A stretch of DNA of 40,000 nt. Origin: Candidatus Peregrinibacteria bacterium RIFOXYA2_FULL_41_18 (lineage in GTDB: Bacteria > Patescibacteriota > Gracilibacteria > UBA1369 > UBA12470). The DNA lies in contig MFXH01000010.1 in assembly GCA_001788795.1 (NCBI GenBank), positions 9,328 to 49,327 of the forward strand, read 5' to 3'. The notes below the pieces were generated by a model. It was not told the DNA's origin. It saw nothing but the letters and a program-made list of their open reading frames with translations, and did no database searches. Below, in pieces: positions 6,820 to 35,089 of this stretch. Within the stretch, counting starts at the first letter, position 1; every line of letters starts with the position of its first letter. The translations under genes were made by a program, and so were the position numbers.

Positions 6820-6922
6820 TGCACGATTTTTTTTCTTTATATTGACTTTAGCATATGGAGATTCTAAATTGAAGTAAAGGCTAAAAAATACGTAGTGCGA
6901 ATCGATAGCAGAGCACCTCATT

Positions 6923-7888
6923 ATGAGTCGTTTTGCATTAGCAAAACACCTTATGAACGAAACAAAAACACAATTCGAAAAAATTAGATTCAAAGATCTT
7001 GTCTGGACGGACATCATTTCGCCGAACAGGGAAGTCCTCACTTCCATTCAGAAAAAATATAAGTTCCATGAACTCGATATCGAGGACTGTTTGACAGAGA
7101 ATCAGAGATCTAAAATAGATGAATACGACAAGTATTTGTTTATGGTTTTGCATTTCCCTTTTTTCGACAGCACCAAGAAGCTTCTTGTAATACAGGAAAT
7201 CGATATCTTCATCGGTCAGGACTTCATTATTACGATACATGACGGGGTTTTGAGACCCGTGATGGATGTTTTCGGCAAGTGTATGTTATCCATAAAACAG
7301 AGAAAAAGATTTATGTCTAACGGGAGCGGATTTTTGCTGTATGAAATAATAGATTCGATGCTTGATGAAGGATTCCGTCTTGTCGATTATATCTCCAATA
7401 ATACCCATGTTATCGAGAAAAGCGTGTTTAACGTGGATGCAACTCGCAAGGATATGCTTAAAGATATTTTGATTTTGAAAAAAGATATCATCACGTTCAG
7501 GCGCGTTGTGTCTCCGCAAAGAACAGTTATTGCACAGCTTGAACATAAGAATAAGAAGTTTTTACCTGAAAATCTTGAGTTATATTTCGACGATCTTGTG
7601 GATAAGGTCGAGAAGACGTGGAGCAATCTTGAAAGTATGAAGGATTTGGTAATGTCGATTCAGGAGACTCACGAATCTATCATTTCGCATACGACAAACA
7701 ATGTAATTAAGGTACTTACCATATTCTCGGTCATTATGCTTCCTTTGACGGTTTTGACGGGCTTCTATGGGATGAATGTTAGTCTTCCGTTTGAACAACA
7801 CGAGGCGGCATATATGATTGTTATTGGAGGAATGATAGTTATCATAGGCGCCATGCTTGGGTATTTCAGATGGAGAAAGTGGCTGTAG
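6923..7888 (+). CDS. corA: CorA-family magnesium/cobalt transporter
   Basis: C-terminal two-TM region with the YGMN signature (GFYGMNVSLPF). An alternative start at 6953 is possible. Confidence 0.9.
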   Translation: MSRFALAKHLMNETKTQFEKIRFKDLVWTDIISPNREVLTSIQKKYKFHELDIEDCLTENQRSKIDEYDKYLFMVLHFPFFDSTKKLLVIQEIDIFIGQDFIITIHDGVLRPVMDVFGKCMLSIKQRKRFMSNGSGFLLYEIIDSMLDEGFRLVDYISNNTHVIEKSVFNVDATRKDMLKDILILKKDIITFRRVVSPQRTVIAQLEHKNKKFLPENLELYFDDLVDKVEKTWSNLESMKDLVMSIQETHESIISHTTNNVIKVLTIFSVIMLPLTVLTGFYGMNVSLPFEQHEAAYMIVIGGMIVIIGAMLGYFRWRKWL

Positions 7889-7890
7889 GG

Positions 7891-7915
7891 TAAGGAGCAA
7901 GACACAAGACACAGA
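7891..7915 (+). repeat. Stop-adjacent module M1 taaggaGcaagacacaagacacaga
   Basis: It matches 11270..11294 at 24 of 25 positions and begins 3 nt after the corA TAG. Confidence 0.8.
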
Positions 7916-7947
7916 TGGCAGATTGGGATGTGTTTTTTTGGAGAAAG

Positions 7948-9145: not shown

Positions 9146-11272
9146 ATGGAAAATTCAGTTACATTAGATTTGGCTGGAAAACCTTTTACCTTAAAAACAG
9201 GTGAATTGGCTCTTCAAGCCGATGGTTCAGTTCTCGTTTCACTTGGCGATACGGTTGTTATCGCAACAGCTATGATGGGAGGCGTCAGACAAGGCACGGA
9301 TTTCTTCCCGTTAATGGTGGATTATGAAGAGAAGTTTTACGCTTCTGGCAAAATCAGCGGAAGCCGATTTATCAAGAGAGAAAGCAGACCTTCCGACAAT
9401 GCAGTTCTTACATCAAGACTTATAGACAGACCTCTTCGACCTCTTTTCCCTAAGAAAATGAGAAACGATGTGCAGGTTATCTGTACTGTTCTATCAGCGG
9501 ATCTTGAAGTAGATCCTGGGACTACGGCTCTTACAGGCGCTTCTATGGCGCTTATGTTATCAGGTATGCCTTTCAAAGGACCTGTTGCAGGTGTAAGAAT
9601 CGGACTTATCAAAGATGAAGCCGGAAACGAGAAATTGATCGTCAATCCGACTTATAAACAGGAGGAAGAAGGTCGATTGGACCTTGTCGTTGCAGGTACG
9701 GAAGATGCGATCACGATGGTTGAAGCCGGCGCGAAAGAGGTTTCTGAAGAAATAATGCTAAAGGCTCTTGATTTGGCTCACAAGCACATCAAGGAATTGT
9801 GCAAATTACAGAAGGAATTGGCTGCTAAAATCAAGGTTGAAGCTAAGGAATATATCGAGGTACCTATAAACCCTGAAGCTATCAAGGCTGTCTCTGAAAC
9901 AATTACAGAAAGTGAGCTTGATTCGATAAGCGGCATGACAAAACATGAAGTTAAGGAGAAAATTCATGTTCTCGAAGATAAATTGATCGAAAAATACAAA
10001 TCTCAAGTCGAAGAAGGAACCTTCACTGAAGGCGATCTTAAGGAGGCTTTTGATGAGGCTTTCAAGAAGAGGATGAGAAAAAACATTCTTGAAAAAGGCA
10101 TACGTTTGGATGCTCGAAAACCATCAGATATCAGACCTATCAAGTGTTCTGTCGGCGTATTGCCTAGAACTCATGGTTCAGCTCTGTTCCAAAGAGGTGA
10201 AACTCAAGCTCTTACAATCACAACTCTCGGTGCTCCCGGTGCCGCTCAATTGATCGACACTATGGATCAGGATACTACCAAGAGATACATGCATTATTAC
10301 AACTTCCCTCCTTATTCCACAGGCGAGGTAAAACCGCTTCGTGGCGCTTCAAGAAGAGAGGTTGGACATGGATATTTGGCTGAGAGATCTCTCGAACCGA
10401 TGATTCCTGCAAAAGAAGGTTTCGCTTATACGATGAGAGTCGTTTCTGAAATCCTGTCTTGCAACGGATCGAGCTCAATGGCTTCGGTTTGCGGATCGAC
10501 GCTTAGCTTGATGGATGCCGGCGTACCGCTTAAAGAACCTGTCGCAGGTATTGCGATGGGCCTTGTTACGGAAAATACAGATGGCGTTTTGACTCCTGGG
10601 GGCAAATATACGATCTTGAGCGACATTCAAGGTATGGAAGATTTCGCAGGTGATATGGACTTCAAGGTAACAGGTACAAAAAACGGAATTACAGCTTTGC
10701 AGATGGATATCAAGGTCAAGGGTTTGACTGTTGAAATCATGAAGGAAGCTCTGGCTAAGGCGACTGAAGGACGCGCTCATATTATGAGCAAAATGCTCGA
10801 GGCTTTGCCTGCTTCAAGAGCGCAACTTTCACCTTATGCTCCTCTTATCACCACAATCAAAATCAATCCTGAGAAAATCAGAGAGGTCATCGGGAAAGGT
10901 GGCGAAACGATTCAGAAAATCACTGCCGAATGTGGCGTTGAAATCGATATTGAGGACGAAGGTCTCGTTATGGTTACAGCTCCAAATCAAGAGAGCGGAC
11001 AAAAAGCTGTTGATTGGATTAACAGCATTGTCGCTGATCCGATTGTTGGAAACACATATGATGCCAAGGTCGTCAAAATTATGGAGTTCGGCGCATTCGT
11101 AGAGTTCATGCCCGGTAAACAAGGACTTGTTCATGTCTCAAAGCTTTCAGCTAAGAGAGTTGATAACGTTGAAGATGTTGTGCAAATGGGACAAGTGATT
11201 AAGGTTAAATTGATGGAAGTCGATAGAGAGGGAAGATATAATTTGTCTTATAAGGATGCGAAGCAGGAGTAA
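9146..11272 (+). CDS. pnp: Polyribonucleotide nucleotidyltransferase (PNPase)
   Basis: 708 aa with two RNase PH domains, a KH domain (GKGGETIQKI) and an S1 domain, in classical rpsO-pnp synteny. Confidence 0.97.
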   Translation: MENSVTLDLAGKPFTLKTGELALQADGSVLVSLGDTVVIATAMMGGVRQGTDFFPLMVDYEEKFYASGKISGSRFIKRESRPSDNAVLTSRLIDRPLRPLFPKKMRNDVQVICTVLSADLEVDPGTTALTGASMALMLSGMPFKGPVAGVRIGLIKDEAGNEKLIVNPTYKQEEEGRLDLVVAGTEDAITMVEAGAKEVSEEIMLKALDLAHKHIKELCKLQKELAAKIKVEAKEYIEVPINPEAIKAVSETITESELDSISGMTKHEVKEKIHVLEDKLIEKYKSQVEEGTFTEGDLKEAFDEAFKKRMRKNILEKGIRLDARKPSDIRPIKCSVGVLPRTHGSALFQRGETQALTITTLGAPGAAQLIDTMDQDTTKRYMHYYNFPPYSTGEVKPLRGASRREVGHGYLAERSLEPMIPAKEGFAYTMRVVSEILSCNGSSSMASVCGSTLSLMDAGVPLKEPVAGIAMGLVTENTDGVLTPGGKYTILSDIQGMEDFAGDMDFKVTGTKNGITALQMDIKVKGLTVEIMKEALAKATEGRAHIMSKMLEALPASRAQLSPYAPLITTIKINPEKIREVIGKGGETIQKITAECGVEIDIEDEGLVMVTAPNQESGQKAVDWINSIVADPIVGNTYDAKVVKIMEFGAFVEFMPGKQGLVHVSKLSAKRVDNVEDVVQMGQVIKVKLMEVDREGRYNLSYKDAKQE

Positions 11273-11294
11273 GGATCAAGACACAAGACACAGA
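11270..11294 (+). repeat. Stop-adjacent module M1 taaggaTcaagacacaagacacaga
   Basis: Its first three bases are the pnp TAA stop. The sibling copy is at 7891..7915. Confidence 0.8.
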
Positions 11295-11299
11295 CAGCA

Positions 11300-11343
11300 G
11301 AGGAGAAGTAGGGGAAGTTGGGGAAGTGACATAGTGACATAGT
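11300..11343 (+). repeat. Module M2: gaggagaagta-ggggaagtt-ggggaagt-gacatagt-gacatagt
   Basis: Tandem 8-9-nt purine-rich words ending in a duplicated GTGACATAG core. Related copies are at 12635, 14761 and 35047. Confidence 0.8.
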
Positions 11344-11366: not shown

Positions 11367-12644
11367 ATGAACATTCTCAAAGAAGTCTTAAGTCATGAAG
11401 TGATGCCGTCCATGGGTTGCACAGAACCCGTGGCGGTTGCGCTTGCGGCGGCTCATGCTAGTCGTGCTGTCGGTGGTAAGGTTTGGCGAGTTGTTGCCGA
11501 ATTGGATCCGGGGACTTTTAAGAATGGAATGAATGTATTTATTCCGGGTACTAATGGGGCTGTCGGCATACCTATAGCGATGGCTCTCGGTGCTATTTGC
11601 GGAGATCCTAAGAATGGACTCAATTTACTCAAAAATATAGATTCGAAATGCCTGAAAGAGGCTGAAAAACTTGTTGCTCAGCATGAGATTTCCATCAAGC
11701 CGAATTTCTCAAAAGATTATCTTTATATAAAAGTAAAAGTTAAGACTGATAAGGGTGAAGGAATCGCGAAAATCGTTAGAGGACATACAAATCTCGTCGA
11801 GCTGAAAAAAAATGGCTTGCGAATAAAAGGTACCGGTGCGAAAACCGGCTGCGAGGTTGAAAATTACAGGGAGTTTTTGAGAAAATTAAGCATAAAAGAT
11901 CTTATAAAAGCTGCTGAAAATGCAGACAAGAAAGAGCTCGCATATATGAAGGAAGGTGTTGAAATGAATCTCAAAGCATCAAAAGAAGGCATGAAGTACA
12001 AAGGGTTCGCTCATCAAATTTCTCAAATGGTTAAATCAGGTGTTTTGAAAGATGATTTTTTCTCTAAAACAAAGGTAATCGTTTCTGCGGCTTCCGATGG
12101 ACGTATGGCCGGAATGAGCCTTCCCGTAATGAGTAGCGGAAGTTCCGGTAATCAAGGAGTTGTAGCCGTCCTCGTACCTTACCTGTTCGGAAAAGAAAAC
12201 GGAGTTGCCAATGAGAAGATAATGAAAAGTATCGCCTTATCTCACCTATTGAATGCTTATGTAAAAGCTTTTGCCGGAGAACTCTCCCCTATCTGCCAAT
12301 GTGCGATTGCAGCAGGAGTTGGTGCGGCCGCAGCGTGCGTTTATCAACGCAAAAACGATATGAAATTGATTGGGCACGCAATAAATAATGTTGCTAACGA
12401 TCTTGGCGGAATGTTCTGCAATGGTGCAAACCTCGGATGTGCCATAAAAGTAGCCAGTTCCGCTGAAGCTGCCATCACATCGGCATTGGTTGCTCTCAAT
12501 GGATTCTGCATTTCCGATTCAAACGGAATCATTGGTGCCACGCCTGAGGAAACCCTGCAGAATCTTGCCAAAATAACGTGCGAAGGTATGGGCAAGACTA
12601 ATGAAGTTATTCTCGGGATTATGAAGAGGCAGGCGGAGGTGTAG
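11367..12644 (+). CDS. UPF0597/YhaM-like protein (serine dehydratase alpha-like, L-cysteine desulfidase family)
   Basis: 425 aa with the N-terminal PSMGCTEPVAVALAAA motif characteristic of this family. Confidence 0.8.
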   Translation: MNILKEVLSHEVMPSMGCTEPVAVALAAAHASRAVGGKVWRVVAELDPGTFKNGMNVFIPGTNGAVGIPIAMALGAICGDPKNGLNLLKNIDSKCLKEAEKLVAQHEISIKPNFSKDYLYIKVKVKTDKGEGIAKIVRGHTNLVELKKNGLRIKGTGAKTGCEVENYREFLRKLSIKDLIKAAENADKKELAYMKEGVEMNLKASKEGMKYKGFAHQISQMVKSGVLKDDFFSKTKVIVSAASDGRMAGMSLPVMSSGSSGNQGVVAVLVPYLFGKENGVANEKIMKSIALSHLLNAYVKAFAGELSPICQCAIAAGVGAAAACVYQRKNDMKLIGHAINNVANDLGGMFCNGANLGCAIKVASSAEAAITSALVALNGFCISDSNGIIGATPEETLQNLAKITCEGMGKTNEVILGIMKRQAEV

Positions 12645-12680
12645 GGAGAAGTTGGGGAAGTAGGAGGAGTGACGTAGTGA
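12635..12680 (+). repeat. Module M2 copy spanning the stop codon of the YhaM-like gene
   Basis: ggaggtgTAGggagaagttggggaagtaggaggagtgacgtagtga. The gene's TAG is at 12642..12644, inside the module. Confidence 0.8.
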
Positions 12681-13296: not shown

Positions 13297-14796
13297 ATGA
13301 CAAAAGGACCAACCACTCTTCCTTCTTGGGTTCACTCAAATCCTGTTGCTCTCGGCCATGCCGAACGCATTGCGCCGACTATTGAAGATGCTCAAGAGGA
13401 TATAGGAAGACACATCCGTGCTGTCATTAAGAAAGTTTTTGAAGATCCTGATATCCGAAAAGCCGGTAAAGGTGCTGTAATCAGATACACAACAATGTGC
13501 GGTGAAGTTATCCGTAGAATCTTGGCAATGAAGGAGATGGATCCTGGGCTTATAAATGTTCTTGCTATCGGTGATGTCACTCTACCTCCCGAAGCGAAAA
13601 CAACTATGGATGAGCTTGTTGAGGCGGCACATGGATATGAACGTGAACTTACAGCAGAAGGATACGGATATGATTTAGCTTCTCAGGGTTCGCTTAGAGC
13701 AAGAAGCGCTACTATTGATTATCTAGATAGTCATTATGGATTTTCGGCGCAAGAAGGATTGAGAGATGTCTTGGTTAAAAATACCGGAGTTTCAAGTGGA
13801 GGCATGCGCGCGCTCAACGATATAGCATCTTCATTTGTTCTCAGTGCAACTAGGGATAGAGAACACCCCTCACGACCTCGCTTCATACAACCTGATAACA
13901 GCTTCGGGACATGGCGACAGATAGCGAAAAATTCAAGCATGGATGGACGGGAAGCCGATATCCACACTATCAATACCGAACAGAAGAATTTACTGCATTT
14001 AACGGCATCTCAAGTTGATGATTTTTACGCCTCAAATCCTCATGAAACCGAAGATCGGAAATATAGCGATTTATGGTATATCACCCCTGTTGGGAATCCT
14101 TCCGGCACAAGAATGACGCCTTCCCAATTGTCAGATGTCGCTAAGGCGATCGTTAGGAATAATCCAAATGCAACAATAGTTTTGGATTGCGTATATGTCA
14201 GAACTCTTCGGAAAGAGGATGCCAACGCATTGCTTAAAGATATTATTTCCGACCCTACCGTAATGGATAGAGTGCTTTTTGTTGAAAGCTTATCGAAAAC
14301 CCATGGCATACCTGGGAAGAGAGTTGGAGTTTATTTCTCTAAAAATCCGGATATTTTCGGGAAAGTTCTGAATCTCAATATGACAGTATCCGCCGGTAAC
14401 GGATATGATAAAGATGCATTGCTGCTTGCGGTCGCAAATTCCACTCCGGAACAAGAGAAGGTTTTCAAAGACCTGCATGAATTCTGGGCTCGCGAAAGGC
14501 GCGGACTTTTCCACTACTTAAGGCAGCCTCAATTCTCGTATTTATTCGATGAAGATCAGAGCCATATAACTCCCGAACAGATGGAAAACCCTCTCGGGCT
14601 TTATTTATTTATGAAGCTTGAATCAGGTGTCACTTATCAAGATGTTGCAATTGCAACAGGCTGTTTGGGTGTTGAAGATAAGGATATGGGCGCCGGAACG
14701 TTTATTCGATTCTCCGTTGGAAAAATAACCGAACCGACCTATGCGAAGTATATTCCGGAAGTAGAAGAAGTTGGGGAAGTTGGAGAAGTGACGTAG
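13297..14796 (+). CDS. Class I/II (fold type I) PLP-dependent aminotransferase, long form
   Basis: Contains GNPSGT, a DxVY-like LDCVY, and SLSKTHGIPGKRVG (the SxSKxxxxxGxRxG PLP-lysine motif). The C-terminal EVEEVGEVGEVT is encoded by an M2 repeat. Confidence 0.8.
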   Translation: MTKGPTTLPSWVHSNPVALGHAERIAPTIEDAQEDIGRHIRAVIKKVFEDPDIRKAGKGAVIRYTTMCGEVIRRILAMKEMDPGLINVLAIGDVTLPPEAKTTMDELVEAAHGYERELTAEGYGYDLASQGSLRARSATIDYLDSHYGFSAQEGLRDVLVKNTGVSSGGMRALNDIASSFVLSATRDREHPSRPRFIQPDNSFGTWRQIAKNSSMDGREADIHTINTEQKNLLHLTASQVDDFYASNPHETEDRKYSDLWYITPVGNPSGTRMTPSQLSDVAKAIVRNNPNATIVLDCVYVRTLRKEDANALLKDIISDPTVMDRVLFVESLSKTHGIPGKRVGVYFSKNPDIFGKVLNLNMTVSAGNGYDKDALLLAVANSTPEQEKVFKDLHEFWARERRGLFHYLRQPQFSYLFDEDQSHITPEQMENPLGLYLFMKLESGVTYQDVAIATGCLGVEDKDMGAGTFIRFSVGKITEPTYAKYIPEVEEVGEVGEVT

Positions 14797-14797
14797 T
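14761..14797 (+). repeat. Module M2 copy translated as the aminotransferase C-terminus
   Basis: gtagaagaagttggggaagttggagaagtgacgTAGt. The core TAG is the gene's stop codon. Confidence 0.8.
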
Positions 14798-14859: not shown

Positions 14860-14934
14860 GCAGGTATCGTATAGTGGCTATTATGCAGCCTTGCCAAGGC
14901 TGAGAGACGGGTTCGATTCCCGTTACCTGCTCCA
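14860..14934 (+). tRNA. tRNA-Gly (anticodon GCC), CCA encoded
   Basis: Hand-folded. Acceptor gcaggta/tacctgc, anticodon stem cagcc/ggctg with loop ttGCCaa, T arm acggg-ttcgatt-cccgt, discriminator T, then CCA. The D stem has one GU pair and one mismatch. Confidence 0.92.
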
Positions 14935-14994
14935 CAGGCCGGAAGCGAAGCGAACGGCCCATATTATCAAACTGATTGCGGATGCAATCTCCTT
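14932..14994 (+). repeat. Two-hairpin element, copy A (starts within the tRNA CCA end)
   Basis: Hairpin 1 is GGCCG-13 nt-CGGCC and hairpin 2 is GATTGC-ggat-GCAATC. It is homologous to 23410..23473. Confidence 0.8.
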
Positions 14995-15025
14995 ATACGA
15001 ATCCTAAAGGTTTGTTTTAGCATTT

Positions 15026-20542: not shown

Positions 20543-22216
20543 TTATTTTCCGATTAAAGTATCTTTCAGCCCTTTTCCGGGGGCGACCATCGGGAAGACA
20601 TTGTCTTCCGGCTCAACCAAAAATTCGCAAATCACCGTGCCTTTCATATCGCGCGCGGCCTTGATTGTACTTGCAATATCCGAAGGCTTCTCACACCTCA
20701 AATGATTAAGTCCATAAGCTTGCGCTATAAGTGAAAAATCCGGACTTGTTATAGGCGTACCTTCGTAATTTTTATCATAAAATAATTCCTGCCATTGTCT
20801 GACCATTCCCAAAAATCCATTATTCATTATCGCGATTTTGATCTCGAGACCTTCTTGAACTATCGTCATCAATTCCTGAATATTCATCTGTATTCCACCG
20901 TCTCCGTTGATAAGCCAAATCTCTTCATTGGGACGCGCGAATCTTGCGCCTATGGCGGCAGGCAAACCGAAACCCATAGAGCCGAGTCCGCCCGAAGTAA
21001 GAAATTTATTCGACTCATCTTGCGGATAATACTGCGCTGTCCACATTTGATGCTGGCCGACATCCGTAACTATTATAGATTTTCCTTCTGTTATTTTGTG
21101 AAGTTCGGTTAGCATTTTCGGAACGGTAATTCTGTGCGTGTCTTTTGTCGAGAGCGGATAAGTGCGAGTCCAGCCTTCTATTTCCCCCACCCAGTCGTGG
21201 TGTTTTTTCTCCGGCAAAACCTCCAAGATTTGTTTGAGTACATCTTTTATATTTCCTACAACCGGCAGATAAGGCTTAACATTTTTCCCGATTTCCGCCG
21301 GATCTATGTCGATGTGGATTATCTTTGCGTTTTTTGCAAAAGTATCGAGACTCCCTGTTATTCTGTCATCGAAACGAGTACCGATTCCTATCACGAGATC
21401 GGCATTGTGAACCGCGAAATTCGCATAAGCCATTCCGTGCATACCGAGCATCCCATAAGAGAGTTCGTGACTTTCAGGGAAAGCGCCTTTACCCAATATC
21501 GTATGAACGACTGGGATATGACTTCTGACAGCCAATTCCCGCAACTCCTTCTCTGCGCGTGAAATGATCGCGCCATGTCCGCAGATGATTACCGGTTTCT
21601 GAGAGTTTTTTATTAAATTTACGACCTCTGTAACTGTCTTATCGTCTGTACCTGCTGGAATTTTGAAACCCGGAAGGTTAATTTTTTCAGAATAATTAAA
21701 TGAGTCCACCTGTTGCTTAAATACATTTGTCGGAATATCTATGTGGACCGGACCTGGACGACCATTTTTCGCTATATAAAAAGCCTCTTTCATAACTTGC
21801 GGAATATCGCGAGCGTCTTCTACGAAATAATTATGCTTGGTTATCGGAAGAGTTATCCCCAGAATATCCACCTCTTGAAAAGCGTCCGAACCGATCATAT
21901 CACCTCTCACCTGCCCAGTTATCGCAACCATCGGGATCGAATCCATATAGGCATCGGCTATACCTGTAACAAGATTTGTCGCACCCGGACCGGAAGTCGC
22001 AAGACAAACTCCAACCTTGCCACTCGCGCGAGCATATCCATCTGCAGCGAAAGCCGCGCCTTGCTCGTGTCTTACGAGAACATGATGAAGAGTCTTGTAA
22101 TCAGAAAAAGCATCGAAAAAAGGTATTACAGTTCCACCCGGATATCCGAACATGACGGATGTGCCTTCTGCAAGAAGGCTTTCGAGAACTATATGTGCGC
22201 CTGTGAGGGTAGTCAT
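20543..22216 (-). CDS. ilvB: Acetolactate synthase large subunit (ThDP-dependent)
   Basis: 557 aa with the ThDP motif GDGGIQMNIQEL...NN and an N-terminal GYPGG pyrimidine-binding domain. Confidence 0.95.
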   Translation of the reverse strand: MTTLTGAHIVLESLLAEGTSVMFGYPGGTVIPFFDAFSDYKTLHHVLVRHEQGAAFAADGYARASGKVGVCLATSGPGATNLVTGIADAYMDSIPMVAITGQVRGDMIGSDAFQEVDILGITLPITKHNYFVEDARDIPQVMKEAFYIAKNGRPGPVHIDIPTNVFKQQVDSFNYSEKINLPGFKIPAGTDDKTVTEVVNLIKNSQKPVIICGHGAIISRAEKELRELAVRSHIPVVHTILGKGAFPESHELSYGMLGMHGMAYANFAVHNADLVIGIGTRFDDRITGSLDTFAKNAKIIHIDIDPAEIGKNVKPYLPVVGNIKDVLKQILEVLPEKKHHDWVGEIEGWTRTYPLSTKDTHRITVPKMLTELHKITEGKSIIVTDVGQHQMWTAQYYPQDESNKFLTSGGLGSMGFGLPAAIGARFARPNEEIWLINGDGGIQMNIQELMTIVQEGLEIKIAIMNNGFLGMVRQWQELFYDKNYEGTPITSPDFSLIAQAYGLNHLRCEKPSDIASTIKAARDMKGTVICEFLVEPEDNVFPMVAPGKGLKDTLIGK

Positions 22217-22226
22217 AAACTTGTAA

Positions 22227-23930
22227 CTAGTAACTTGTAGTTTTTTGAGATGAGTGATCCTTACGGAAACGTTCCAAGACCGGTGTCGTTTTTCGTCTTG
22301 GAATTTTGATATTTTTTAATCTTTTTTTAATTTCGGTTGCGGTCAATCGTACATTCAATCGACGAGCCGGAATATCTATTTCGATAATATCTCCATCTTT
22401 TATTGCGCCGATTGCTCCACCGTTATAAGCCTCAGGTTCGATATGCGCTATGCAAGGACCCGAAGTCCCACCTGAAAATCTACCATCTGTTATCAATGCA
22501 ACCCGTGTATATCCGGCACCTTTCAGCGCGTCTGTCGGCGTAAGCATTTCCGGCATTCCTGGGGCGCCTGCCGGACCCATGAAACTCAAAACGACTGTGT
22601 CACCCTCGTGAATTTTTTTATTCTTAATCGCCTTAAGAAGAGACTCTTCCGAAGTGAAAACTTTTGCCGGCCCAGTATGCGTCATCATTTCCTCACTTAC
22701 CGCCGTTTGTTTAATGACTGAACTATGCGCAATATTTCCTTTGAGGACAGCAATTCCGCCTTGCCTGAAATAAGGTTTACTGAGCGGTCTTATCACTTCG
22801 GAATCAAGCACTTTTCCAGATGATGCTATCTGTTTTATGGTCTTGCCGTTTATAGTCGGATTATCTTTTATGTAACTGATTATTCTATTCAAAACCGCAG
22901 GAATTCCACCGGCTCTTCCGAGGTCAGCCATCTCGTGATCTCCTGCCGGAATCAAGTGGCAAATGTTTGGTATTTTTTGCGCGATTTTATCAAAAAGATC
23001 TGTCTTTATTTCTATTCCGAGTTCGTGTGCGATTGCCGGAATATGCAAAACCGCATTCGTAGAACCGCCCATAGTCATATCGACCATAATCGCGTTTTCA
23101 AAAGCGGATCGAGTCATTATTTGAGAAGGTTTTATATCTTTTTTTACCAACTCTACAATCTTTCGCCCAGATTCGTAAGCCTGTTTTTTCTTCTCTTCGC
23201 TGATTGCCAAAGTCGTTGCGCAATTCGTAACCGACATGCCGAGAGTTTCTGTTACGCAAGCCATCGTGTTGGCTGTATAAAGTCCGACACAAGAACCAGA
23301 TTTACAATTTGAACATAGCTTCATTTGAGCTTCAGCATCTTCGAGGCGCATTTTCCCCGATGCAACCTGTCCAGCATAAGCGAAACCTTGAATCGGGTGA
23401 ATTTTTTTACCACAGGCCGGAAGCGAAGCGGACGGCCCATTATTATTAGCCTGATCGCGTAAGCGATCTCCTTTCAGCTCATAAGCCTTCATCGGCCCAC
23501 CCGTTAAAATCACTGCAGGCAAATCCAATCGTCCAGCCGCCATAAGCATACCCGGAGTTATCTTGTCGCAATTTGTCACACCAACCCATCCGTCGAGCGA
23601 ATGAGAAAGCATCATGATTTCTATATTGTCCGCAATATGGTCGCGCGAAGGAAGCGATAGACGCATCTCCGCATACATTGCAATTCCATCGCAAACTGCC
23701 GGCACACCCCATTCGAAAGGGACTCCTCCTGCATCGCGTATACCCTTCTTCACTTCTTCCGTAAGAGCGCGAAGATGAATATGCCCGGGGACAATATCGT
23801 TAAACGAGTTGGCGACTCCGATGAAAGGCTTTTTGAAATCGGCATCGCACAGACCGACTGAACGAAGCAATCCTCTATGAGGAAGCGTTGCAGGATTGTT
23901 TTTCAATATGTCGGATTTAAGATGATACAT
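22227..23930 (-). CDS. ilvD: Dihydroxy-acid dehydratase, carrying a roughly 19-20 aa in-frame insertion
   Basis: 567 aa with the IlvD/Edd motifs CDKITPGMLMAA, GGPM, CxxCxSGSC..TANTM and TDGRFSGGT. There are extra residues, DRLRDQANNNGPSASLPAC, between GGPM and the Fe-S cysteine motif. Confidence 0.95.
   Translation of the reverse strand: MYHLKSDILKNNPATLPHRGLLRSVGLCDADFKKPFIGVANSFNDIVPGHIHLRALTEEVKKGIRDAGGVPFEWGVPAVCDGIAMYAEMRLSLPSRDHIADNIEIMMLSHSLDGWVGVTNCDKITPGMLMAAGRLDLPAVILTGGPMKAYELKGDRLRDQANNNGPSASLPACGKKIHPIQGFAYAGQVASGKMRLEDAEAQMKLCSNCKSGSCVGLYTANTMACVTETLGMSVTNCATTLAISEEKKKQAYESGRKIVELVKKDIKPSQIMTRSAFENAIMVDMTMGGSTNAVLHIPAIAHELGIEIKTDLFDKIAQKIPNICHLIPAGDHEMADLGRAGGIPAVLNRIISYIKDNPTINGKTIKQIASSGKVLDSEVIRPLSKPYFRQGGIAVLKGNIAHSSVIKQTAVSEEMMTHTGPAKVFTSEESLLKAIKNKKIHEGDTVVLSFMGPAGAPGMPEMLTPTDALKGAGYTRVALITDGRFSGGTSGPCIAHIEPEAYNGGAIGAIKDGDIIEIDIPARRLNVRLTATEIKKRLKNIKIPRRKTTPVLERFRKDHSSQKTTSY
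23410..23473 (+). repeat. Two-hairpin element, copy B, in frame inside ilvD
   Basis: The first 31 nt match copy A at 30 of 31 positions. Hairpin 2 is GATCGC-gtaa-GCGATC, against GATTGC/GCAATC in copy A. Both copies end in atctcctt. Confidence 0.8.
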
Positions 23931-24014
23931 AATGAGCTGGTTATGGTGTTTTGCTAACGCAAAACGACTTGATAGTATTGCGCAAGTAAGCGATCGCCCG
24001 AGAGGCGACCTTTC

Positions 24015-25865
24015 CTAGCGCTGTTTATAATATAACATATTGTATCCGCGTTCGAACGCTTCTATCGAGGCAACAATAATATCCGGAGAAGTTGCAGAGG
24101 CAATAACCTCCGTTCCGTCTTTTGATTTAACCCCCATCCTCACCTCAACGACGGCGTCAGTACCTTTCGTTTTGATTTCGACGTTGAATGAAGTAAGCCA
24201 ACACTCAAGTTTATCTTTTTTCTGTATAGCTTTTCTTGCAGCCTTGATAATCGCATCCACCGGACCGGCGCCTTCCGCTTCGGTTTTCAAGATCTCACCC
24301 AAATAAGATACGACAACTTTCGCATGAGGTTTCTTGTGGCGAGTAACCGATAGAGCATAATCTTTCACGAAGAAAACTTTTTCCTTGCCCGTGAATTCTT
24401 TCAGCACGTTCTCGACTATATATTGCAAGTCGGCCTTTCTCATTTTGGAGACTTTTTCGTGAAAAAGTTTCACTTCCTTGCATACTTCTTTCAAGTAATC
24501 ATCCGAAAGTACAAAATTAAATTCCGACTTAACTATTTCTTTCACTTTTGCAGGTTGAGGCGTTTTCTCCCACAAGACATTCTCCTTGCCTGCAACCGAT
24601 GAAGCGCGGATTTCGTAAACTTTGTTTTTCAAGTATTTATTTATATCTTCATCAGTAGGCTCCAATACAGGAGGGTCGGGCATGATTTGAGTTGCGGATT
24701 TCGGGTCTTTCAGTCCTACTCCTGTCGCGACACAAACGACTATATCATCCGGCTTTATTATTTTTCTTTTGAGAAGTTTTTTGAGACACGCAACCGGTAA
24801 GGCCGCAGAAGGTTCAACAAATATCGATTCCTTATGAGCCATATCTTTTTCAGCTTCAAGTATCGTTATATCATCGGCCGTTTCTCCGCATCCTTTTGAT
24901 TCTCTAAGCGCATTTAATGCCTTTATGTCATCAAGTGGCTCGCCTATTCCGACCGCAGAAGCGACAGAAGCGGGTTTATCGACGCGCACATATCTTTTTT
25001 TCTTCTCGTCAAAAGCTTTCACGATAGTTGGCACCGATTCCGGCTGTACCCCTATTATACGTGGCAATTTATCTGTAAATCCCATTTCATAAAACTCCTT
25101 AAACCCTTTCCATATCGCCGAAATATTCGTGCCACATCCCATCGGAACTATTACAACATCGGGAACCTTCCAAAATAGTTGTTCCACTATTTCGTAAGCG
25201 CAAGATTTCTGCCCTTCGGCTCTGAAAACATAATCTCCCGCCAAATAAAAATTATGTTTTTTCGCCATTCGTTCACATAATTTACAACAGTCCGCATATG
25301 TACCTCTGATCTGCAATATTCTCGCCCCGTATATAAGGCTCTGCGCAAGTTTGCCGATAGGAGTTCCATCAGGCACAAGCACATAACAAGGCATGTCCGC
25401 TATCGCCGCATAAGCAGAAACCGAAGCCGCCATATTACCCGTCGAAGCGCAACAGACCGCTTTCGCTCCCAACTCTCTGGCTTTTGTAAGTTCCACTAGA
25501 GATCCCCTATCTTTGAATACACCTGTCGGATTTTCACCTTCGTTTTTTATGTAAAGCTTCTTGAGCCCCAGCTCTTTCCCAAGCCTATCGCATTTACGCA
25601 AAGGCGTTCCACCTTCACTAAGCGTAACAAGCAAGTTGAGATTTTTGAGAGGGTAAAATTCAAGATATTTCCGTGCTGAAACCGGTGCATTTCGGAGCGA
25701 ATAAAAGTTCAAGTGCGATTTCATATATTCGTAATCGTACTCGACATCAAGAGCGCCATTGCATTTCGGACATACTGTCGCAGACACCTCTTCTGTCGTA
25801 TATGCGCCACAATTGACGCACTTGAGACGATAACAGCTTGGATTTTCGCATTTTGTTTTTTTCAT
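24015..25865 (-). CDS. Threonine-synthase-like PLP enzyme fused to a C-terminal LeuA-type allosteric (LeuA_dimer-like) domain
   Basis: N-terminal Zn ribbon (CxxC...CPKC), then the ThrC motifs NPTGVFKDRGS, ASTGNMAASVSAYAA and GCGTNISAIWKGFKEF. Residues ~496-612 carry GAGPVDAIIKA...GTDAVVEVRMGV...SPDIIVASIEAFERGYN, which matches the regulatory domain of isopropylmalate and citramalate synthases. Confidence 0.85.
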   Translation of the reverse strand: MKKTKCENPSCYRLKCVNCGAYTTEEVSATVCPKCNGALDVEYDYEYMKSHLNFYSLRNAPVSARKYLEFYPLKNLNLLVTLSEGGTPLRKCDRLGKELGLKKLYIKNEGENPTGVFKDRGSLVELTKARELGAKAVCCASTGNMAASVSAYAAIADMPCYVLVPDGTPIGKLAQSLIYGARILQIRGTYADCCKLCERMAKKHNFYLAGDYVFRAEGQKSCAYEIVEQLFWKVPDVVIVPMGCGTNISAIWKGFKEFYEMGFTDKLPRIIGVQPESVPTIVKAFDEKKKRYVRVDKPASVASAVGIGEPLDDIKALNALRESKGCGETADDITILEAEKDMAHKESIFVEPSAALPVACLKKLLKRKIIKPDDIVVCVATGVGLKDPKSATQIMPDPPVLEPTDEDINKYLKNKVYEIRASSVAGKENVLWEKTPQPAKVKEIVKSEFNFVLSDDYLKEVCKEVKLFHEKVSKMRKADLQYIVENVLKEFTGKEKVFFVKDYALSVTRHKKPHAKVVVSYLGEILKTEAEGAGPVDAIIKAARKAIQKKDKLECWLTSFNVEIKTKGTDAVVEVRMGVKSKDGTEVIASATSPDIIVASIEAFERGYNMLYYKQR

Positions 25866-33598: not shown

Positions 33599-35065
33599 AT
33601 GAAGATGCAAAAAGGTCAAATAATAAATCTTGAAATCAAGAAACTTGCTTTCGGCGGCCAGGGTTTGGGCGTACTCGAAAATGTAATTTCTCAAAAACAA
33701 GAAGACGAGACTTATGTCGCCAGAACTTCTTCTCGTGCGGAAGATAACGGATTCAGAGTTTTTGCCGATGGCGTTGTGCCGGGAGATAAAATCGAAGCAC
33801 GTATCAAGAAAATCAAGAAAAACTATGCGGAAGCAGATGTTGTTAGCATTATAGAGCCTTCTCCTCTTCGCATTGCGCCAAAATGCAAACATTTCGGCAA
33901 GTGCGGCGGATGCAAGTGGCAGATGCTCGCTTATGAAGAGCAGTTGAAGTTCAAAGAGTCGCAGGTGCGCGAGGCTATGTCGCATGTCGGCGGTCTTAAG
34001 AATGTTGAAACCTTGGTTAAGCCTATAATAGGATGCTCCGAACCTTGGTTCTATCGAAATAAGATGGAGTTTTCTTTTGGAAATGAATCAAAAGAAGATA
34101 CCGAATTACGCCTTGGACTACATCCTGCAGGCAGACATGTTGATATATTTGATGTCGAAGAGTGCTTCTTGCAGTCCGAGAAATCGAGTGAGATTCTTGC
34201 GCGAGTGCGTGATTTTGCAAGAAAAAACAATTTGTCTTTTTACAACTCCGCTACCAATGCAGGGCTTTTATCCTCTCTTTATATAAGGGATGGCAAGAAT
34301 ACCGGAGAGATAATGGTCAATCTGGTTACTTGCGAAGAGTTTATGCTTGGTAAAGAATTCTGTGAGTTATTCGAAGACATGCCGGAGATTGTATCGATTT
34401 ATTGGACAAAAATTGCGAGAAAACGCGGTATGAAAACGCAAGTCGGAGAGGTTTTATTAAAAGGAAAACCTTCGATAAGAGAGGAATTAGGCATGAGGCA
34501 TGAGGCAGAAGGCAGAAGTTTGAAATTCAAGATTTCGCCGCAGGCTTTTTTTCAACCAAATACTCATCAAGCTGAAATATTATATTCGCAGGCCGTAAAA
34601 GCCGCCGGACTAACAGGTTCGGAAGTCGTATTTGATCTATATTGCGGAACCGGTACGATAGGACTTTTTTGCGCGCATAAAGCGAAGAAAATCTACGGGC
34701 TCGAGCTGAACGAAAGTGCGATTGCAAATGCAAAACAAAACGCAATGCTGAATGGGATTGAGAATTCATGGTTTAAGGCCGGCGATGTTGACAAGAGCAT
34801 TCGTGAAATACCAGACACGCCCGATGTCGTTATCGTCGATCCGCCAAGGGCCGGACTTGGAGAAAGCGTCGTTCTCAAGATTGTAGACTTCCAACCGAAA
34901 ACTGTCGTTTATGTTTCTTGTGATCCTGTGAATCTTGCTCGCGACCTTAAGACTTTTGAAGAAAATGGCTATAAAGTCGAAAGCATCCAGCCGGTCGACA
35001 TGTTCCCCCACACTTATCATATTGAGAATGTGGCGAGGATAGTTAAGGGGAAGTTTGGGAAGTAG
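33599..35065 (+). CDS. rlmD: RumA/RlmD-type 23S rRNA (uracil-C5)-methyltransferase
   Basis: It has a TRAM-like N-terminus, a 4Fe-4S cysteine motif (CKHFGKCGGCKWQ), SAM-binding LYCGTGTIG and a catalytic DPPRAGL. The exact paralogue (RlmD versus RlmCD/TrmA-like) is uncertain. Confidence 0.85.
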   Translation: MKMQKGQIINLEIKKLAFGGQGLGVLENVISQKQEDETYVARTSSRAEDNGFRVFADGVVPGDKIEARIKKIKKNYAEADVVSIIEPSPLRIAPKCKHFGKCGGCKWQMLAYEEQLKFKESQVREAMSHVGGLKNVETLVKPIIGCSEPWFYRNKMEFSFGNESKEDTELRLGLHPAGRHVDIFDVEECFLQSEKSSEILARVRDFARKNNLSFYNSATNAGLLSSLYIRDGKNTGEIMVNLVTCEEFMLGKEFCELFEDMPEIVSIYWTKIARKRGMKTQVGEVLLKGKPSIREELGMRHEAEGRSLKFKISPQAFFQPNTHQAEILYSQAVKAAGLTGSEVVFDLYCGTGTIGLFCAHKAKKIYGLELNESAIANAKQNAMLNGIENSWFKAGDVDKSIREIPDTPDVVIVDPPRAGLGESVVLKIVDFQPKTVVYVSCDPVNLARDLKTFEENGYKVESIQPVDMFPHTYHIENVARIVKGKFGK

Positions 35066-35089
35066 GAGAAGTAGAAGAAGTGACATAGT
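35047..35089 (+). repeat. Module M2 copy spanning the rlmD-like stop codon
   Basis: ggggaagtttgggaagTAGgagaagtagaagaagtgacatagt. The gene's TAG is at 35063..35065. Confidence 0.8.

Follow-up and report, generated by a model that had tools for sequence, protein, structure and literature searches.

The ilvD gene in the 40-kb window (the whole stretch of Peregrinibacteria DNA analyzed here, 40,000 nt) carries an in-frame two-hairpin element, which is one of a family of small hairpin repeats that has not been described before. We interpret this segment as a copy of a lineage-specific, non-autonomous dispersed hairpin repeat of ~60 nt that is mobile now or was mobile recently, and we assign a probability of about 0.6 to this reading.

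The ilvD gene encodes a dihydroxy-acid dehydratase of 567 aa and occupies positions 22227..23930 on the minus strand. The element lies within it at 23413..23472 on the plus strand (antisense to the gene), as defined by filled and empty alleles, folds, and a covariance-model match (E 4e-7). It begins with CAG (23413-15), followed by hairpin 1 (stems at 23415-19 and 23433-37, loop GAAGCGAAGCGGA), a linker CATTATTATTAGCCT at 23438-52, hairpin 2 (GATCGC at 23453-58, loop GTAA, GCGATC at 23463-68), and a TCCT tail (23469-72). The two closest ilvD alleles (L118 and L119), one of which comes from a near-identical strain, do not contain the insert and read ..TTTACCA^TT.. at the insertion site. The empty site corresponds to GAGCTTAA^TGGTAAA, and the filled site differs from it by exactly 60 additional nt with no target-site duplication. 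Because the CCA directly 5' of the insert (23410..23412 on the plus strand, the antisense of codons AA^T GG) is already present in the empty alleles, it is the target sequence and lies outside the element. An earlier note, made from the DNA letters alone, had described a 64-nt unit (23410-23473), whose leading CCA thus turns out to be flank. The comparison shows that the ilvD copy was gained as a discrete 60-nt unit behind a pre-existing CCA on the antisense strand, and the same CCA^CAG junction recurs at tRNA genes. The insert is not an artefact, since the identical filled allele was found on 13 contigs and the seven loci compared, from seven samples, have the same nucleotide sequence. Precise deletion by slippage was also considered and rejected, as the flanking direct repeat is only CC and the AAT GGT of the empty alleles would not be restored.

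At the protein level, the insert encodes IlvD residues ~153-173, where KGDRLRDQANNNGPSASLPAC stands in place of a single N. It had been proposed that the ORF reads through the element and that ~19 residues are added; the ORF does read ..KGDRLRDQANNNGPSASLPACG.. between the GGPM and CxxCxxGSC motifs, and alignment gives 20 extra residues, which are lacking in all 119 other aligned IlvD sequences, including those with 84% and 81% identity. An AlphaFold2 model of IlvD built with 120 sequences (a run with 15 sequences gave an unusable pLDDT of 45.6) has a pLDDT of 84. Among long segments, the value falls below 50 only at residues 155-172, which sit between the strands at 150-151 and 176-177. Three circumstances keep the gene intact: the length of 60 nt is divisible by three; the frame used (-2) is one of only two out of six (the other being -3) that contain no stop codon in the insert; and the 20 added residues are placed by the model at the tip of a beta-hairpin, where their low confidence points to a probably disordered loop.

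Another copy follows the gene for tRNA-Gly(GCC), which has an encoded CCA end (14860..14934 on the plus strand; predicted by ARAGORN and by Rfam RF00005 with 58.6 bits). This copy runs from the first base behind the CCA (14935..14995, plus strand) and comprises hairpin 1 (14937-41 and 14955-59), a linker (14960-73), hairpin 2 (GATTGC at 14974-79, loop GGAT, GCAATC at 14984-89), and a TCCTTA tail. The homology between the ilvD insert and this tRNA flank, which the earlier note had pointed out, is retained under proper statistics: identity is 83-86% across ~64 nt (BLAST E 1.3e-13 and 1.5e-11), the 31-nt block described there matches at 30 of 31 positions, and a pattern search for this block produced two matches versus none expected in shuffles. 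The tRNA-flank segment, previously placed at 14932..14994, starts at 14935, after the CCA end, and its 60 nt up to 14994 are homologous to the insert. Of seven tRNA genes in the clade, five are followed by an element that starts at +1 behind the CCA and has the orientation of the tRNA, and related genomes have copies behind tRNA-Lys, His, Trp, and Cys. Typically, members of the family are located directly behind a tRNA CCA end or in an intergenic spacer; the tRNA association could reflect function instead of targeting.

The general plan of the family is A^CAG, hairpin 1, an AT-rich linker CATATTATnAAGTT, hairpin 2, and CTCCTTA. A covariance model detected four copies in the window at E <1e-6, with the next match at E >2. 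The third and fourth copies are more diverged than those at ilvD and tRNA-Gly. The third (23945..24023, minus strand; covariance-model E 2e-7) is located, in sense orientation, in the spacer from the PALP/LeuA_dimer gene to ilvD, and contains a long hairpin 1 (GCGCTAG..CTTGCGC) with a nested hairpin, a linker AATACTATCAAGTC, and hairpin 2 GTTTTGCGTTAGCAAAAC at 23948-23965. The fourth (6893..6952, plus strand), directly upstream of the corA ATG (6953), is the best covariance-model match (E 7e-8) and has a weak hairpin 1 (GTGC..GCAC), a linker CTCATTATGAGTC, hairpin 2 GTTTTGCATTAGCAAAAC at 6930-6947, and an ACCTT tail. A fifth copy (L124) was found in the same species, in flanking DNA 20 kb beyond the window. 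It lies behind a CCA and in antisense orientation, within the leader of an ORF that resembles prepilin genes; the N-methylation motif of this ORF begins unusually late (residue 26), and its leader is a candidate second in-frame residence. The host species has five copies in ~60 kb and related genomes contain more, contrary to the possibility, raised previously, that no other genomic copies exist.

In related genomes, intergenic-spacer copies occur in either orientation. For example, an antisense copy is present between rpsO and pnp in L122, where the window has an ordinary terminator. In addition, ORFs of L113 and L116 have their terminal codons supplied by copies, and a hairpin-1 copy is located inside pnp in L110. 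Most copies are extragenic, and the contexts comprise tRNA CCA ends, intergenic spacers, ORF ends, and, occasionally, the inside of ORFs. The 5' flank is CCA at seven sites (five tRNA genes, ilvD, and L124) and AAA, TAA, GAA, or ACG elsewhere; CAG precedes hairpin 1 in most copies and TAG in two. The clade DNA covered amounts to ~135 kb, overlapping copies of the same regions included, and ascertainment is biased by the retrieval of the relatives' loci via the hairpin-1 pattern. An exact-core scan of 596 Gb of genomes and a metagenome collection found true copies only in three related Gracilibacteria/Peregrinibacteria MAGs, and 35 kb from more distant Peregrinibacteria contained no copies. The single match in viral contigs, located in a GC-rich contig, was put down to chance. 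A six-frame peptide query for other in-frame copies yielded 38 word-sharing candidates, none of which could be scored, and was hence uninformative. Rfam covariance models did not match the element, the tRNA alone scoring. None of the copies was flagged as an intrinsic terminator (GC-rich hairpin plus U tract), canonical terminators being found elsewhere in the genome, or as a sigma-70 promoter, and manual spacing checks revealed no -35 element. Dif/Xer sites, CRISPR repeats, and 16S 3' end mimicry were compared by sequence and dropped as unsupported.

Folding of the ilvD and tRNA-Gly copies confirms the two hairpins reported in the earlier note (GGCCG-13 nt-CGGCC and a 6-bp stem with a 4-nt loop), and the difference between GATCGC/GCGATC and GATTGC/GCAATC is a true compensatory change. 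The accompanying suggestion of selection on structure holds for hairpin 2, in whose alignment 95.7% of cells are paired, double changes occur in three of seven pairs, and none of 500 shuffles reaches the covariation score. In hairpin 1, the only variable positions are one compensated pair and the N of each of its three GNA triplets. Both hairpins have GCGNAGC or GCGNNAGC as caps, which constitute the published consensus of mini-hairpin DNA, including GCGTTAGC and GCGTAAGC (PMC13037366). Among ten hairpin-2 loops, seven agree with GNNA, the pattern of DNA mini-hairpins, and the only loop that fits RNA GNRA is GTAA, found in the two ilvD copies. Both strands of the insert fold stably, with modest fold z-scores (-1.0 to -1.95).

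The presence or absence of copies at three orthologous sites contradicts the phylogeny of the flanking sequences. Both the ilvD insert and the 23945-24023 copy are present in the window and L116, and both are missing in L118 and L119; of the informative sites between these two copies, 22 group L116 with L118, and the alternatives receive four each. The insert is the best-conserved 60-nt stretch of the 5.4-kb alignment between the window and L116, being identical at 59 of 60 positions (78.6% identity overall) with one synonymous change in 20 codons. Such identity between alleles that are ~80% identical can also be explained by nucleotide-level selection or short-patch recombination. L119 is ~98% identical to the window outside ilvD and ~80% identical within it. 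A recombination breakpoint at the element, considered from the split of the window-L119 BLAST alignment, was rejected because the divergent patch extends over the greater part of ilvD and its limits do not coincide with the element.

From these patterns, we infer that the family is non-autonomous mobile DNA, active now or recently. Its active form would be the single-stranded top strand, in which the GCGNAGC and GCGNNAGC caps would give two very stable DNA mini-hairpins. A short target (A, preferably CCA) would receive the element on its 3' side, and removal would be precise. An HUH/Y1 enzyme may be supplied in trans, as for REP elements and IS200/IS605 ends; the ORFs of the 40-kb window include neither a transposase nor an HUH enzyme. 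Copies at tRNA and gene ends may also be kept for host function, such as 3'-end protection or processing. A bolder proposal, about which we are doubtful, is that these repeats represent a new miniature class of mobile DNA in CPR: 60-nt, duplication-free, strand-specific elements with two DNA mini-hairpins, which would dock at CCA (tRNA 3' ends or CCA within ORFs), be gained and lost seamlessly, and owe their mobility to an ssDNA enzyme or to template switching onto the CCA ends of tRNAs.

A different account, which we consider possible but rather unlikely, regards the family as a module of the host that serves regulation or processing in tRNA trailers and intergenic spacers, and the ilvD copy as a one-off templated patch. 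A broken or stalled replication end in ilvD would have switched to a tRNA trailer via ACCA and returned at T/TT microhomology, and the copy would afterwards have been inherited or moved between alleles by recombination. Microhomology is indeed possible at both junctions (ACCA on the left, as at tRNA-Lys and tRNA-Leu ends, and T/TT on the right), and most copies are located behind tRNAs or at gene boundaries. The ilv operon is also a recombination hot spot among co-occurring strains, as seen in the contrast between L119 identities outside and inside ilvD, and contig breaks and variant ilvD-ilvB spacers fit this picture. However, a templated patch leaves unexplained the lineage-specific copies in either orientation (the rpsO-pnp spacer of L122, the prepilin leader of L124, and pnp of L110), as well as the joint presence or absence of two copies against the flank phylogeny, and the copies of the supposed host module match neither canonical terminators nor sigma-70 promoters in a genome that uses ordinary terminators elsewhere.

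The high identity of the insert between otherwise diverged alleles, its single synonymous change, and its stable folds on both strands would also suit a functional RNA in ilvD, with the hairpins acting in the mRNA or an antisense transcript (pausing, stability, or antisense-termination). We think this improbable, given that the closest alleles, L118 and L119, work without the insert, the fold z-scores are modest, Rfam offers no match, and the hairpin-2 loops largely follow the DNA pattern, GTAA alone fitting the RNA one. That the segment is an ancestral loop of IlvD, or that it resembles the tRNA flank by chance, has a probability close to nil: the insertion site is length-variable in IlvD alignments, but these same alignments refute ancestry by the absence of the insert from every orthologue, and a BLAST E of ~1e-13 with no match expected in shuffles argues against chance.

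The host is an uncultured groundwater bacterium (Peregrinibacteria), and to our knowledge, small dispersed repeats have hardly been described in streamlined CPR genomes. The family stands out for its exact junction with the tRNA CCA, the hallmark of ultra-stable DNA mini-hairpins in both hairpins, and its variation among close relatives, and it offers a compact system for studying how hairpin repeats spread without an obvious transposase. The ilvD copy illustrates that a conserved Fe-S enzyme tolerates 20 extra residues. On the practical side, such repeats break assemblies, provide strain markers, and risk being mis-annotated as protein sequence.

Among known systems, Rickettsia palindromic elements (RPEs) are small palindromic repeats of a reduced genome that reside in frame in housekeeping genes, typically in surface loops (PMC10969869). 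The likeness to RPEs proposed in the earlier note holds for behavior (a palindromic repeat in frame in a conserved enzyme) and fails for membership (60 nt, two hairpins, no shared frame). Both are multi-copy palindromic repeats, here with five copies in ~60 kb of the host species, and both show in-frame residence with the ORF kept (ilvD, the candidate prepilin leader, and the hairpin-1 copy in pnp). RPEs, however, measure ~100-150 bp, have a conserved peptide-coding frame, and are frequently inserted in ORFs, whereas the element here is 60 nt long with two separate short hairpins, and most of its other copies have stops in the ilvD frame, no reading frame being conserved across copies. Unlike RPEs, most copies are also extragenic or tRNA-adjacent, and the host phylum (CPR) is unrelated.

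The element resembles REPs in its short GC-rich hairpins and its mostly extragenic, strain-variable location at gene ends, and its 5' foot motif (CAG, or TAG in two copies) may correspond to that of REPs, from which it differs in sequence (GTAG). A REPIN consists of two like hairpins in inverted order, whereas the hairpins of the element are unlike, follow each other in direct order, and are separated by a conserved AT-rich linker, and no RAYT/Y1 gene was found among the window ORFs. Elements of the IS200/IS605 type integrate on the 3' side of a tetra- or pentanucleotide and are excised precisely (PMC5027513). With their ends and with PATEs, the element shares a hairpin near each end, a strand-specific architecture, seamless empty sites, the absence of target-site duplication, and possibly insertion 3' of a short sequence (PMC5027513, PMC3201880). 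In contrast to IS608 ends, its two hairpins are dissimilar in both stem and loop. The left hairpin is only 2 nt from the junction, the target is loose (A, often CCA), the element is much smaller than known IS200/IS605-type examples, and TnpA is absent from the window ORFs. A classical MITE has terminal inverted repeats and a target-site duplication; the element lacks the duplication, and its ends (CAGGCC.. and ..ATCTCCT) do not form inverted repeats. The start at +1 after the CCA in five of seven clade tRNA genes recalls tRNA 3' trailers or external transcribed spacers, but unlike these, the element is also found far from any tRNA gene, in antisense orientation to genes, and within ORFs. Priming sites of ssDNA phages and plasmids (G4, St-1/alpha3, RSF1010 ssiA) have the same caps, including GCGTTAGC and GCGTAAGC (PMC13037366), but their mini-hairpins are single functional sites in replication origins, whereas the element is a chromosomal multi-copy repeat. 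By analogy, the family appears akin in behavior to REP elements or IS200/IS605 ends, with an RPE-like tolerance in frame, and would be a member of none of them.

The ilvD segment and the flank of tRNA-Gly are clearly homologous (window positions 23410-23473 and 14931-14994), as the earlier note had claimed, and the match at 30 of the first 31 nucleotides was confirmed. Within the window, a 30-nt pattern is found twice, compared with 0.00 expected from shuffled sequences, and a BLAST search with the tRNA-flank copy as query gave 83-86% identity to the ilvD copy over about 64 nt (E-values of 1.3e-13 and 1.5e-11). Folding reproduces the two hairpins said to be common to both copies, and the compensatory change between them, GATCGC/GCGATC versus GATTGC/GCAATC, is also present. 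The tRNA-Gly(GCC) gene (14860-14934, plus strand) encodes its CCA, and the element begins at the base directly 3' of it. In-frame read-through was borne out by the ilvD ORF (22227..23930, minus strand, 567 aa), which spans the segment; only two of this copy's six reading frames are stop-free, and ilvD uses one of them. We conclude with high confidence that the segment belongs to a new, lineage-restricted family of dispersed 60-nt repeats with two hairpins, one copy of which is inserted in frame in ilvD.

Alignments of 15 and then 120 IlvD sequences place 20 extra residues in the window protein only, in agreement with the proposed lineage-specific insertion; the one other sequence containing them (P0001) is a partial, 100% identical copy of the window IlvD. 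The window protein matches, at 100% identity, a partial protein from 'Candidatus Peregrinibacteria bacterium RIFOXYB2_FULL'. The nearest other IlvD proteins, P0002 (84%) and P0003 (81%), read ..KAYELN-GKKIHP.. without an insert. In the DNA of the corresponding alleles, L118 and L119, the empty site is GAGCT(T/G)AA^TGGTAAAAAAAT, such that the filled site has gained exactly 60 bases and carries no target-site duplication. Viewed on the element strand, the insertion directly follows a pre-existing CCA (TTTTTTTACCA^TT..), the same junction as that seen at tRNA genes. Because this CCA is already present in the empty alleles, it belongs to the flank and the unit is 23413-23472; thus, the insertion reported at 23410-23473 stands, but its extent is 60 rather than 64 nt. 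An assembly artefact can be excluded for the filled allele, since the identical protein is found on 13 contigs, and the nucleotide sequence is the same at all seven loci inspected, which come from seven samples. The window DNA recurs in assemblies from Rifle groundwater, among them a 460-kb scaffold.

The AlphaFold2 model of IlvD built on the 120-sequence alignment is confident nearly throughout (pLDDT 84.3, pTM 0.88). Residues 155-172 are the only long stretch with pLDDT below 50, and short strands (150-151 and 176-177) lie on either side, so in the model the insert sits at the tip of a beta-hairpin as a loop that is probably disordered. Alignment to the solved dihydroxy-acid dehydratases 6ovt and 6nte also places it in an indel-prone loop past the GGPM strand.

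The search for copies elsewhere that had been proposed revealed further members in the window, in flanking DNA and in relatives. When 596 Gb of species-representative genomes and a metagenome collection were scanned for exact matches to the hairpin-1 core, true copies came only from three related MAGs labelled Gracilibacteria, the remaining hits being chance matches in GC-rich genomes. The clade DNA covered amounts to about 135 kb, including overlapping copies of the same regions, and the loci of relatives were retrieved through the hairpin-1 pattern, which introduces an ascertainment bias. The family follows a modular plan: A|CAG, hairpin 1, CATATTATnAAGTT, hairpin 2 and (A/T)CTCCTTA. A covariance model built on the linker plus hairpin 2 detects exactly four copies in the window (E-values of 7e-8 to 9e-7; next match above 2), one further copy in 20 kb of same-species flanking DNA, and no copy in 35 kb from two more distant Peregrinibacteria. 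The element starts at +1 after the CCA in five of seven tRNA genes across the clade. In SO_2016_GW1_135, it follows the CCA of tRNA-Lys and tRNA-His, hairpin 1 and the linker alone stand between the CCA of tRNA-Trp and tRNA-Leu, and a version with a different hairpin 1 follows tRNA-Cys. Two more diverged copies in the window were detected, one in the intergenic spacer preceding ilvD (23945-24023, minus strand; an orthologous copy is present in L116, the relative whose ilvD contains the insert) and one immediately before the start codon of corA (6893-6952, plus strand). Another copy (locus L122) is located between rpsO and pnp, antisense to both; the corresponding site in the window is occupied by an ordinary terminator, a hairpin plus T run. 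Two copies consist of hairpin 1 only: one supplies the final ten codons of the ORF for an SLH/DPBB protein (L113, 8658-8685), and the other lies in a variable linker of PNPase (L110, 1326-1353; net gain of three residues). These two, from two other MAGs, share the compensated stem GACCG/CGGTC and both translate as EQTGSEA(D/N)G. The fifth copy (L124, approximately 21972-22030), about 20 kb outside the window, follows CCA in antisense orientation and has the linker closest to that of the ilvD copy. It falls in the leader of a prepilin-like ORF of the same species (21513-22046, minus strand). This leader is unusually long (MRRKGSRISCVCIRKQANSKRPSGVG|FTLIELL), and the N-methylation motif begins only at residue 26, not close to the N-terminus; residues ~8-25 are encoded by the reverse complement of the element, and this is a possible second in-frame insertion. 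In addition, the copy tails ..CTCTTT (L114, 7879) and ..ACCTT (window, 6953) abut the ATG of the downstream ORF, leaving no space for a Shine-Dalgarno sequence and placing an anti-SD-like CTCCTT where it would be expected.

The test for covariation across copies supports the structure. In ten copies of hairpin 2, 95.7% of cells are paired and three of the seven pairs show double-sided changes; none of 500 shuffles attains the observed covariation score, and in slid registers, pairing drops to 30-54%. Pairing is 100% in hairpins 1 of the GGCCG type, in which a single pair shows compensation (G-C replaced by A-T in two genomes); the other positions that vary within the hairpin are the middle bases of three GNA triplets in the layout stem, GNA, GC-GNA-GC, GNA, stem. 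Copies outside this type also have a hairpin here, although its stem and loop sequences differ. Hairpin 1 is capped by GCGAAGC or GCGGAGC, and hairpin 2 in seven of ten copies by GCGTTAGC, GCGTAAGC or GCGTCAGC; all of these caps fit the consensus of extraordinarily stable DNA mini-hairpins, GCGNAGC and GCGNNAGC, for which two of the exact hairpin-2 octamers are tabulated with Tm of 69.5-71.5 C, and which are found at primase sites of single-stranded DNA phages and plasmids (PMC13037366). The RNA GNRA rule is followed by GTAA only, the loop of both ilvD copies. We infer, short of proof, that the structured species is the top DNA strand.

The source strain of L119 is ~98% identical to the window (100% in places), but its ilvD allele and upstream spacer are only ~80% identical and lack both local copies. 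L116, ~79% identical overall, has both, and L118 has neither. Among informative sites in the 457 nt between the two copies, 22 join L116 to L118, while the alternatives receive 4 each; thus, the pattern of presence and absence conflicts with the flank phylogeny, and to explain it one needs repeated gains or losses, each of them clean, or transfer of the elements without their flanks. The ilvD copy matches at 59/60 positions between the window and L116, more than any other 60-nt stretch of the 5.4 kb compared (56/60 for the runner-up, 78.6% overall), and similarity in the adjacent flanks is unremarkable. Both L118 and L122 originate from sequencing run SRR22388352 and may represent one organism; if so, it lacks the ilvD-locus copies and has the rpsO-pnp copy, which the window lacks.

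Several other features of the locus were observed. Window positions 22500-24015 show allelic replacement relative to L119, L121, L132 and L136, with ~80% identity across most of ilvD in co-occurring strains that are otherwise 98-100% identical; a break in one assembly falls within ilvB, and contigs differ in the length of the ilvD-ilvB spacer (10 or 73 nt). The ilv operon appears to be a hot spot of recombination. Immediately upstream of ilvD is a 616-aa fusion of PALP (threonine dehydratase/synthase-like) with a LeuA allosteric dimerisation domain (24015-25865, minus strand). Outside the few close relatives, the IlvD homologues of highest identity (~70%) carry annotations as DPANN archaea (Aenigmarchaeota, Woesearchaeota, Nanoarchaeota), methanogen relatives and Deltaproteobacteria, a distribution that may point to horizontal transfer of the ilv genes into this CPR lineage. 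An unrelated repeat family consists of three or four tandem 9-mers (GGRGAAGTW) followed by GTGACRTAGT (11301-11335, 12644-12678, 14754-14797 and 35046-35089), each at or just past the stop codon of a plus-strand ORF and one ~60 nt upstream of tRNA-Gly; a similar sequence occurs in the relative L123 (~1014-1060). A third short repeat, GTAAGGAnCAAGACACAAGACACAGAnnGCAGA, lies at gene ends (7890-7922, 11269-11301 and, weakly, 34484-34516) and adjoins the 9-mer repeat at 11269-11335. Same-species locus L127 (7402-10001) has no called genes where the window and L128/L129 have three (a 388-aa DUF8173 protein, a serine hydrolase and a CCA-adding enzyme), which could reflect a scaffold gap or a strain deletion.

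With moderate confidence, the element has the characteristics of elements that are processed as hairpins of single-stranded DNA, such as IS200/IS605 ends and REPs (PMC5027513, PMC3201880). Such handling would fit the strand-specific architecture with hairpins at both ends, and insertion 3' of a short sequence without target duplication and with seamless empty sites. Against a mobile-element mechanism, no transposase is encoded in the window, the two hairpins are dissimilar, and conservation of the 5' flank is only loose. CCA precedes two of seven independent non-tRNA copies (chance expectation, about 1 in 64). In the main rival explanation, the family would serve the host as a module of tRNA trailers and spacers, the ilvD copy being a single templated patch mediated by microhomology. 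Its junctions would allow microhomology (ACCA on the left, T/TT on the right), but this covers one event and leaves the antisense, in-ORF and lineage-specific copies elsewhere unexplained. The ilvD copy itself may conceivably have a regulatory role, which would account for its conservation.

The element matches no Rfam family. Its suggested likeness to Rickettsia palindromic elements holds for in-frame residence, although its size and coding frame do not fit their definition. It also lacks the inverted like hairpins that define REPINs, the like ends and strict target of IS200/IS605, and the terminal inverted repeats plus target duplication of MITEs. In behaviour, however, it resembles REP or IS200/IS605-type hairpin elements.
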